From Candidatus Kaiserbacteria bacterium (GTDB lineage: Bacteria; Patescibacteriota; Minisyncoccia; Phycocordibacterales; UBA918), in contig JAHQWD010000002.1 in the NCBI GenBank assembly GCA_019634005.1, positions 128,747-192,746 of the forward strand: DNA of 64,000 nt, written 5' to 3'. A program made the translations under genes and the position numbers. Below the pieces are notes generated by a model that was not told the DNA's origin, ran no database searches, and saw only the letters and a program-made list of their open reading frames with translations. Positions 58,192 to 58,581 of this stretch are shown in pieces; within the stretch, counting starts at the first letter, position 1, and the number at the start of each line of letters is the position of its first letter.

Positions 58192-58225
58192 AGTGCTAGG
58201 GTTATTTTAGGAAAGGAGAAAGACA

Positions 58226-58309
58226 GTGGAAAACAAACCAATCTTCCCAGACTTCATTCGTGCATATTTTTTGGGACTCATTTTGTTCGTTGTAGGCACA
58301 TTGTTGTAG
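58226..58309 (+). CDS. Micro-ORF 1 (27 aa, single TM): VENKPIFPDFIRAYFLGLILFVVGTLL
   Basis: GTG start 6 nt after AGGAGA. Not in the ORF track (below 60 aa). Confidence 0.35.
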   Translation: MENKPIFPDFIRAYFLGLILFVVGTLL

Positions 58310-58319
58310 GAGGAAGCAA

Positions 58320-58412
58320 ATGTGGGATAAAATCCCTCACAGGGCACAGGTGGGGATATTACTTGGCGCAATCGCCATTGTTGTTGCCCCAATCGTCTCA
58401 TTTTTGACATAG
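58320..58412 (+). CDS. Micro-ORF 2 (30 aa, single TM): MWDKIPHRAQVGILLGAIAIVVAPIVSFLT
   Basis: ATG 7 nt after AGGAGGAAG. Starts 10 nt after the micro-ORF 1 stop. Confidence 0.4.
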   Translation: MWDKIPHRAQVGILLGAIAIVVAPIVSFLT

Positions 58413-58421
58413 GAGGAAAAA

Positions 58422-58535
58422 ATGAAGAAAAGCAAAATGAGTTTGTTGGACAAAGGACTCGTTGCCGTGATCCTGCTTGCGGCAATCGCGGGAACGATAG
58501 TGCTTATTGCAGGCGTGATCGCCTTTGCCAACTAG
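58422..58535 (+). CDS. Micro-ORF 3 (37 aa, single TM): MKKSKMSLLDKGLVAVILLAAIAGTIVLIAGVIAFAN
   Basis: ATG 6 nt after AGGAGGAAAAA. Starts 9 nt after the micro-ORF 2 stop. Confidence 0.4.
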   Translation: MKKSKMSLLDKGLVAVILLAAIAGTIVLIAGVIAFAN

Positions 58536-58544
58536 TGATGTCCG

Positions 58545-58572
58545 CAACCCTGTAAAAGCCCGACACACTGTC
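58545..58572. terminator. Bidirectional rho-independent terminator, shared by the micro-ORF cluster (+) and efp (-)
   Basis: gcccgacacactgtcgggc flanked by aaaa and ttttcc. Confidence 0.6.
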
Positions 58573-58581
58573 GGGCTTTTC

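Follow-up and report, generated by a model that had tools for sequence, protein, structure and literature searches.

Within the 64-kb stretch of a Candidatus Kaiserbacteria contig (from a metagenome-assembled genome) that was analysed here, referred to below as the window, a 424-nt gap between rpsR and the convergent gene efp holds three very small open reading frames (ORFs) on the plus strand, denoted O1, O2 and O3 (Table 1). The gene run rpsF-ssb-rpsR (+) ends at 58157 and efp occupies 58582-59157 (-). The products of rpsR and efp carry consecutive NCBI accessions, MBX2866589.1 and MBX2866590.1, so no annotated gene lies between them. An earlier reading of the window made from its letters alone (the sequence-only reading) had described three tiny plus-strand ORFs of 27, 30 and 37 aa, spaced 9-10 nt apart, boxed in by two terminators and each preceded at 6-7 nt by an AGGAGA or AGGAGG Shine-Dalgarno (SD) sequence. 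All three ORFs lie where that reading placed them and the gaps measure 10 nt (O1-O2) and 9 nt (O2-O3); the SD sequences are likewise present, at spacers of 6, 6 and 5 nt rather than 6-7 nt. The two terminators are real and strong hairpins. The left one folds at -26.2 kcal/mol on the plus strand (z -9.0) and -25.5 kcal/mol on the minus strand (z -7.9), and the right one at -18.0 kcal/mol on the plus strand (z -5.7) and -18.9 kcal/mol on the minus strand. As both hairpins fold equally well on the minus strand, the border terminators are taken to be bidirectional.

Table 1. Features of the rpsR-efp interval, in window coordinates.
Feature	Position	Strand	Detail or evidence
Intrinsic terminator of rpsR, left border	58155..58193	both	perfectly symmetric hairpin AAAAGAAAAACCCCGC-AGTT-GCGGGGTTTTTCTTTT
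Candidate extended -10 promoter TGcTAGGGT (TGnTAnnnT)	58194..58202	+	directly 3' of the rpsR terminator T-tract
SD of O1, AAGGAGA	58213..58219	+	6 nt before the GTG start
O1, 27 aa, MENKPIFPDFIRAYFLGLILFVVGTLL, GTG start	58226..58309	+	ORF and SD
SD of O2, AGGAGG	58308..58313	+	6-nt spacer; overlaps the O1 TAG stop (58307-58309)
O2, 30 aa, MWDKIPHRAQVGILLGAIAIVVAPIVSFLT, ATG start	58320..58412	+	ORF, SD and conserved frame
SD of O3, AGGAGG	58411..58416	+	5-nt spacer; overlaps the O2 TAG stop (58410-58412)
O3, 37 aa, MKKSKMSLLDKGLVAVILLAAIAGTIVLIAGVIAFAN, ATG start	58422..58535	+	ORF and SD
Terminator common to O3 (+) and efp (-), right border	58554..58580	both	terminator scan and folding

The observation of three SD-led hydrophobic ORFs is confirmed, and the arrangement was compared with what chance and the rest of the window provide. 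In 5000 dinucleotide-preserving shuffles of the interval, three SD-led ORFs of 25 aa or longer never arose, and even one SD-led ORF of that length that was also hydrophobic appeared in only 4 of the 5000. Over the rest of the 64-kb window, on both strands, no other small ORF was found to combine an SD with a Kyte-Doolittle value of at least 2.4, the sole other entry above 2.4 being an alternative start of the 615-aa gene at 50088-51935. Paralogues of the trio were not found elsewhere in the window.

Each of the three peptides carries a short polar or basic N-terminus ahead of a hydrophobic segment. In O1, the polar N-terminus is followed by an apolar C-terminal segment, with an Eisenberg hydrophobicity (H) of 0.73. 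O2 has a single transmembrane (TM)-like helix, a conserved N-terminal motif, MW..IPH.AQVGI, and an APIV kink, while O3 has a basic N-terminus and an unbroken apolar helix of 25 residues in which the triplet IAG occurs twice, seven residues apart (H 0.93, hydrophobic moment, muH, 0.11, net charge +3). Across the trio, the Eisenberg mean H is 0.73-0.93 and muH 0.08-0.18 at the most hydrophobic segment, with a Kyte-Doolittle maximum of 2.4-2.9; such hydrophobicity with low amphipathicity is transmembrane-like. The mutual similarity of O1, O2 and O3 is not significant (the closest two reach E 0.047 over 19 residues when compared within a tiny database) and only the TAGGAGGAA junctions are common among them.

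The coding evidence comes from related genomes, in which syntenic loci (given L numbers here) were gathered via efp and rpsR, with the closeness of each relative expressed as efp identity. The convergent rpsR/efp layout is kept over a broad set of Kaiserbacteria/Paceibacteria-like genomes. In L081 (efp 87% identical), a 30-aa ORF at the corresponding position, ORF-a, is 59% identical to O2 (tblastn E 2e-8), and the 34 nucleotide differences between the two are split 5/9/20 over codon positions 1/2/3. The proportions of nonsynonymous and synonymous differences (pN and pS) are 0.205 and 0.92; for scale, pN in the same pair of genomes is 0.048 for rpsR and 0.078 for efp. Four of the other five frames over O2 have pN > pS, and the fifth, an antisense frame which shares the third-position wobble, has a stop in the window. 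Because the differences are rich in third positions, pN is far below pS and the other frames do not display this pattern, O2 is, judging from this comparison, a protein-coding gene under purifying selection. The sequence-only reading had allowed that the minus-strand frame alone might prove to be the conserved one; it is the plus strand that is favoured, the antisense frames having pN at or above pS, or stops. Its view that the antisense ORFs listed for the interval are spurious also holds, since the long antisense ORFs are not conserved. The 92-aa antisense ORF was ruled out as a real gene on the same ground and because the antisense ORFs of L081 extend across the rpsR terminator.

Immediately downstream of its O2 homologue, L081 carries a counterpart of O3, the SD-led, single-TM ORF-b of 35 aa (MRKIKWS...), with which O3 shares just the N-terminal pattern M-K/R-K-x-K-x-S. 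As there is no significant similarity between the two, conservation of the O3 frame is positional only. O1 aligns as an insertion relative to L081, and no homologue of it was found in any relative compared or library searched. O2 can be considered firm as a gene, O3 probable and O1 plausible. In the window, O2 and O3 lie in one frame and are parted by a single TAG; a single ORF formed by TAG read-through is excluded, because their counterparts in L081 lie in different frames.

Beyond L081, the gap between rpsR and efp recurs as a slot for small membrane proteins. The slot scan covered 25 loci with efp at least 63% identical, two of which, L082 and L162, represent the same contig; L082 and L162-165 show no differences over 1 kb, so variation within the closest species is uninformative. 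Over the 25 loci, the rpsR-efp gaps add up to 8.2 kb and contain 16 hydrophobic small ORFs led by an SD, 16/16 on the rpsR strand, compared to 4 in 14.6 kb of other non-ORF sequence of the same loci; L169 and L170 supply further slot examples. The layout is repeated in relatives in the order terminator, TGnTAnnnT, SD, small TM ORF or ORFs and terminator, with the rpsR terminator hairpin kept in L081, L162 and L166 and the right-hand hairpin also kept in relatives. The content differs from genome to genome: L166 (efp 96%) has one ORF of 31 aa, L082/L162-165 (efp 93%) one of 29 aa, L081 three of 30, 35 and 45 aa, L083 (efp 86%) none in a gap of 172 nt, and more distant genomes have single-TM or 2-3-TM proteins of 38-91 aa. 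Detectable homology is confined to few slot pairs, viz. O2 and L081 ORF-a, L166 and L082, L098 and L006, and L099 and L009. On the loci compared, the slot is conserved as a place and a format, not as a sequence.

Some individual slots have features of their own. L081 contains tandem cassettes at 4268-4702, the first with promoter, ORF-a, ORF-b and terminator and the second with promoter, ORF-c and terminator; ORF-b and ORF-c have a common N-terminus, MRKIK(W/S)S, which suggests local duplication followed by fast divergence. The L083 slot keeps the terminator and a promoter-like TGGTACTGG, followed by only a 15-codon non-hydrophobic ORF, and looks decayed or emptied. In L167 (GGAGCCGTACTTTTCGTACGGTGAGG), L087 (GGAGCGGTACAAGTCGTACCGTGA) and possibly L084, whose slots have no small TM ORF, a conserved-looking hairpin is flanked by GGAG and GAGG, and this may be an RNA element or a remnant. 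In L168 (efp 81%), the two genes share one strand, with efp downstream of rpsR instead of convergent to it, and the slot architecture is rearranged.

Regarding expression, the candidate extended -10 promoter would place the transcription start near 58209-58211 and give a leader of ~16 nt. The T, G, T, A and T positions of this element are invariant in a four-way alignment of the window (TGCTAGGGT), L166 (TGATATAAT), L082/L162 (TGGTATACT) and L081 (TGGTAGGCT), and the second unit of L081 has a further instance (TGCTACCGT). Of 13 slot units, 9 have TGnTAnnnT no more than 60 nt upstream, where 5% would be expected (P ~1e-9, for a motif picked after inspection). O1 and O2 each end in a TAG that lies within the SD of the following ORF (T-AGGAGG), and in L081 one stop abuts an SD. 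This overlap suggests translational coupling of O1, O2 and O3, and since the two stops sit inside the following SD, the three peptides are probably made together.

These signals stand out in a genome where SD sequences appear to be rare. As the sequence-only reading had remarked of the window at large, they are weak or infrequent elsewhere, and for 52 of the 64 long ORFs in the window no SD-like motif is seen within 20 nt of the start. In several first genes, the extended -10 box ends only 6-9 nt before the start codon, a distance that suggests widespread leaderless mRNAs in this genome. Examples of such boxes are TGGTATAAT, TGGTACAAT and TGGTATACT, and starts of this kind include 10544(-), 16977(-), 42441(+), 50088(+) and 28433(+), while many internal genes begin right after ...AACT/ATCT ATG and have no SD. 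Other genes with a good SD are few (2469-4619, 5007-5996, 9543-9884(-) and 37341-37742), and two of these, with starts at 5007 and 9884, have signal-peptide-like N-termini; an SD may single out a subset of genes that serve the envelope or were acquired recently.

Library searches gave no relatives for the peptides. Exact look-up of the three in a collection of 15 billion proteins and in a gene-position index found them absent. An artificial O1+O2+O3 concatenate had no match at E up to 10 among 5.8 billion proteins, and nine single-TM slot peptides of relatives, joined into one query, had none at E up to 1 in the same collection, while a phmmer search with O3 against 1.84 billion cluster representatives gave 0 matches. 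Pfam, NCBIfam, PADLOC and PHROGs, searched with the trio and five slot peptides of relatives, returned only sub-threshold TM noise, as did Pfam with ten further slot proteins of relatives. Similarly, Rfam gave only terminator-shaped sub-threshold matches (Leu_leader, RsmY) at permissive thresholds, and only six tRNAs over the whole window at gathering thresholds. A literature search on small proteins or SD usage in Patescibacteria and the candidate phyla radiation turned up nothing relevant to the rpsR-efp locus.

The explanation preferred here, to which a probability of roughly 70% is assigned, is that the trio forms an independent, coupled operon of three single-pass micro-proteins which associate through helix-helix contacts and have an accessory, lineage-specific role in the membrane. 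The extended -10 promoter right after the rpsR terminator would drive a transcript of ~370 nt ending at the terminator common to O3 and efp, and each micro-protein would initiate from its own strong SD, with coupling provided by the stops within the SDs. Built from a short N-terminal stretch, polar or basic, and a hydrophobic helix that extends to the C-terminal end, the peptides would be single-pass proteins, and the positive-inside rule, applied to these N-termini, predicts an N-in/C-out orientation. They would then act within the membrane by helix-helix contacts, either mutually or with a larger membrane protein, and their role would be accessory and lineage-specific rather than core, the gap in relatives differing in peptide number and sequence. 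The general proposal of the sequence-only reading, a co-translated set of single-helix peptides missed by gene callers, is supported by the selected O2 frame, the kept layout and the recurrence of SD-led TM ORFs.

Several points weigh against this explanation. The operon is predicted from sequence, and no gene for a partner membrane protein, such as a role of the KdpF, CydX or AcrZ type would involve, was found in the operon or nearby, which leaves the regulatory-subunit candidate of the sequence-only reading neither favoured nor disfavoured. O1 has a GTG start as well as no homologue found, and its helix is the least convincing of the three because its uncharged run covers just 15 residues; O3 and ORF-b give no BLASTP alignment and have a pN of 0.50. 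L083 is one of several relatives in which the slot is degenerate or empty, from which it follows that the peptides are dispensable. As to the promoter, the -10 hexamer TAGGGT is a weak match, a -35 element is not evident and the enrichment was tested on a motif that had already been seen. Lastly, no protein library searched holds a homologue, so function cannot be transferred.

Considering known systems, the closest kind is that of single-pass membrane proteins encoded by small ORFs, such as KdpF (29 aa), CydX (37 aa), AcrZ and MgtS, which are likewise about 27-37 aa, have one helix and their own SD and are missed by annotation. The H and muH values of the trio resemble those of KdpF, CydX and Fst, not those of phenol-soluble modulins (PSMs) or leaderless bacteriocins. 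Proteins of the KdpF type are, however, encoded in or beside the operon of the complex they bind, whereas the trio sits beside rpsR and efp and is without an adjacent partner operon; it also has no similarity to known families, and the content of its locus shifts between close relatives. Consecutive, close-packed genes for single-TM peptides of 30-40 aa are also seen in psbE-F-L-J and petG/petN, a likeness suggesting co-assembly in fixed proportions, but those are highly conserved members of photosynthetic or respiratory complexes, while the trio sequences turn over fast. The class of the trio is already known, and its families are, as far as these searches go, new.

Among the specific functions that the sequence-only reading had put forward was that of a type I toxin-like module, in which one or more membrane-depolarising peptides would be checked by an antisense or other small RNA, for example one arising by read-through from efp. 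The criteria of Fozo et al. (2010; PMC2887945), which include a polar or charged C-terminal tail, served as the yardstick. Like Ldr/Fst, Ibs, TisB and ZorO toxins, the peptides are small (27-37 aa, where the criteria ask for fewer than ~70 aa and a predicted transmembrane segment), consist of a single hydrophobic helix, and are intergenic, unannotated and variable in copy number among close relatives; their hydrophobicity is near that of Fst and LdrD, and the convergent efp could yield an antisense RNA if its terminator leaks. Their C-termini (...VGTLL, ...VSFLT and ...IAFAN), however, are apolar and lack a tail of polar, charged or aromatic residues, none of the three ORFs repeats the sequence of another, and the trio shows no tandem duplication with similarity beyond the coding region. 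Nor does the arrangement fit well: the ORFs lie 9-10 nt apart in one apparently coupled polycistronic operon with no space for separate antitoxin genes, and the predicted ~16-nt leader offers too little length for the kind of fold that typically sequesters the SD in a type I toxin mRNA. An antisense RNA gene was not detected, the sole minus-strand promoter-like site (58232 to 58204) pointing away from the ORFs and into the rpsR terminator, in a phylum whose promoters are poorly known, and no Rfam antitoxin match above threshold was found. With no polar tail, no repeats and no antisense promoter overlapping the ORFs, a type I module is unlikely. Export of membrane-active peptides, as leaderless multi-peptide bacteriocins, PSM-like peptides or effectors acting on the host of a probably episymbiotic bacterium, appears still less so. 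In leaderless bacteriocin and PSM operons (aurABCD of aureocin A70, gakABC of garvicin KS, psm-alpha1-4), the peptides are amphipathic and homologous to one another, and genes for ABC exporters or immunity lie alongside. The trio resembles these operons in having several tandem micro-ORFs, each with its own ribosome-binding site, on one short unannotated transcript; the net charge of O3 is favourable, and fast turnover among close relatives would fit an arms race. Its peptides, though, are integral-membrane-like (H 0.73-0.93, muH 0.08-0.18, against an H of 0.33-0.57 and a maximum muH of 0.37-0.60 for reference peptides, values typical of integral TM helices and not of amphipathic soluble peptides) and not paralogous, the genes directly flanking them are rpsR and efp and have no part in transport or immunity, and there is no Pfam, NCBIfam or PADLOC match; the bacteriocin-like candidate of the sequence-only reading is not supported. 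Its phage holin candidate is not supported either, with no PHROG or Pfam match better than E 0.02, housekeeping neighbours instead of a phage context and no occurrence of the back-translated O2 motif in viral contigs.

A different possibility is that the ORFs, O2 perhaps excepted, are debris, either pieces of a decayed multi-TM gene or ORFs passing transiently through a permissive convergent gap. The slot content does differ even at efp identities of 93-96%, and slots are empty or degenerate in L083, L084, L001 and others. More distant relatives have 2-3-TM proteins of 58-91 aa in the slot; that of L092, 91 aa long, matches the concatenated trio weakly from end to end (25% identity; E 0.06, tiny database). 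A single TAG separates O2 from O3 in a common frame, and O1 and O3 have little or no sequence conservation. Random decay, on the other hand, would give no near-perfect SD at the right spacing before a proper start on each ORF, O2 is under clear purifying selection, the L081 counterparts of O2 and O3 are in different frames, all 16 slot ORFs are on the rpsR strand, and promoter motifs are conserved; debris is considered quite improbable. Even further from the evidence is the view that the interval acts as non-coding RNA or as a regulatory 3' extension of the rpsF-ssb-rpsR mRNA, in which the ORFs would be incidental. The sense strand folds somewhat better than its shuffles (z -3.7, terminator included) and there are sub-threshold Rfam matches at the borders, but these matches all cover terminator hairpins and are far below gathering scores, and folding of the whole transcript on either strand gives z-scores that mainly reflect the terminators and are not diagnostic. 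Moreover, a strong terminator parts the interval from rpsR, and the substitutions between the window and L081 crowd the third codon positions of O2, a signature of protein coding rather than of RNA structure, leaving an RNA function scarcely credible.

A bolder reading, entertained only tentatively and on balance doubtful, would see the trio as one allele of a hypervariable, dedicated and strongly expressed rpsR-efp slot, in this Kaiserbacteria-like clade, where membrane-active micro-peptides are born, swapped and lost very fast. On this reading the peptides could be toxins, defence factors or effectors of episymbiosis, SD-led amid an SD-poor genome. We know of no small-peptide locus of such a hypervariable kind described for the candidate phyla radiation.

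The wider neighbourhood consists of rpsF-ssb-rpsR on one side and of efp, an extracytoplasmic function (ECF)-type sigma factor, a TM protein and recA on the other. In the efp-recA interval, at 59039-60074 (+), the ECF-type sigma-70 factor is followed by a multi-TM protein of 108 aa, possibly an anti-sigma factor. The true start of the sigma factor is probably further downstream than the listed TTG at 59039, because that start overlaps efp by 119 nt. A sigma factor is present at the same position in L167, L169 and L170, with a following small gene only in L167; efp abuts recA in L082/L162-165, and a major facilitator superfamily transporter takes that position in L081.

Under the preferred explanation of a coupled operon of single-pass micro-proteins, the locus is moderately surprising, as it combines a recurrent, strand-locked slot of fast turnover with strong SDs in a genome that is largely leaderless and SD-less. 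Small membrane proteins are routinely overlooked by annotation, and in these uncultured bacteria with reduced genomes a large part of the gene content has no known function. Being strongly signalled, recurrent and fast-evolving, and lying beside core translation genes, the locus is a concrete target for metatranscriptomics or heterologous expression. It also offers a clean case of SD-led, apparently translationally coupled genes in an otherwise leaderless or SD-less genome, which would be useful for tuning the gene finders applied to this phylum. Should the peptides prove to act as toxins or as effectors directed at the host, the locus would be relevant to the interaction between episymbiont and host.

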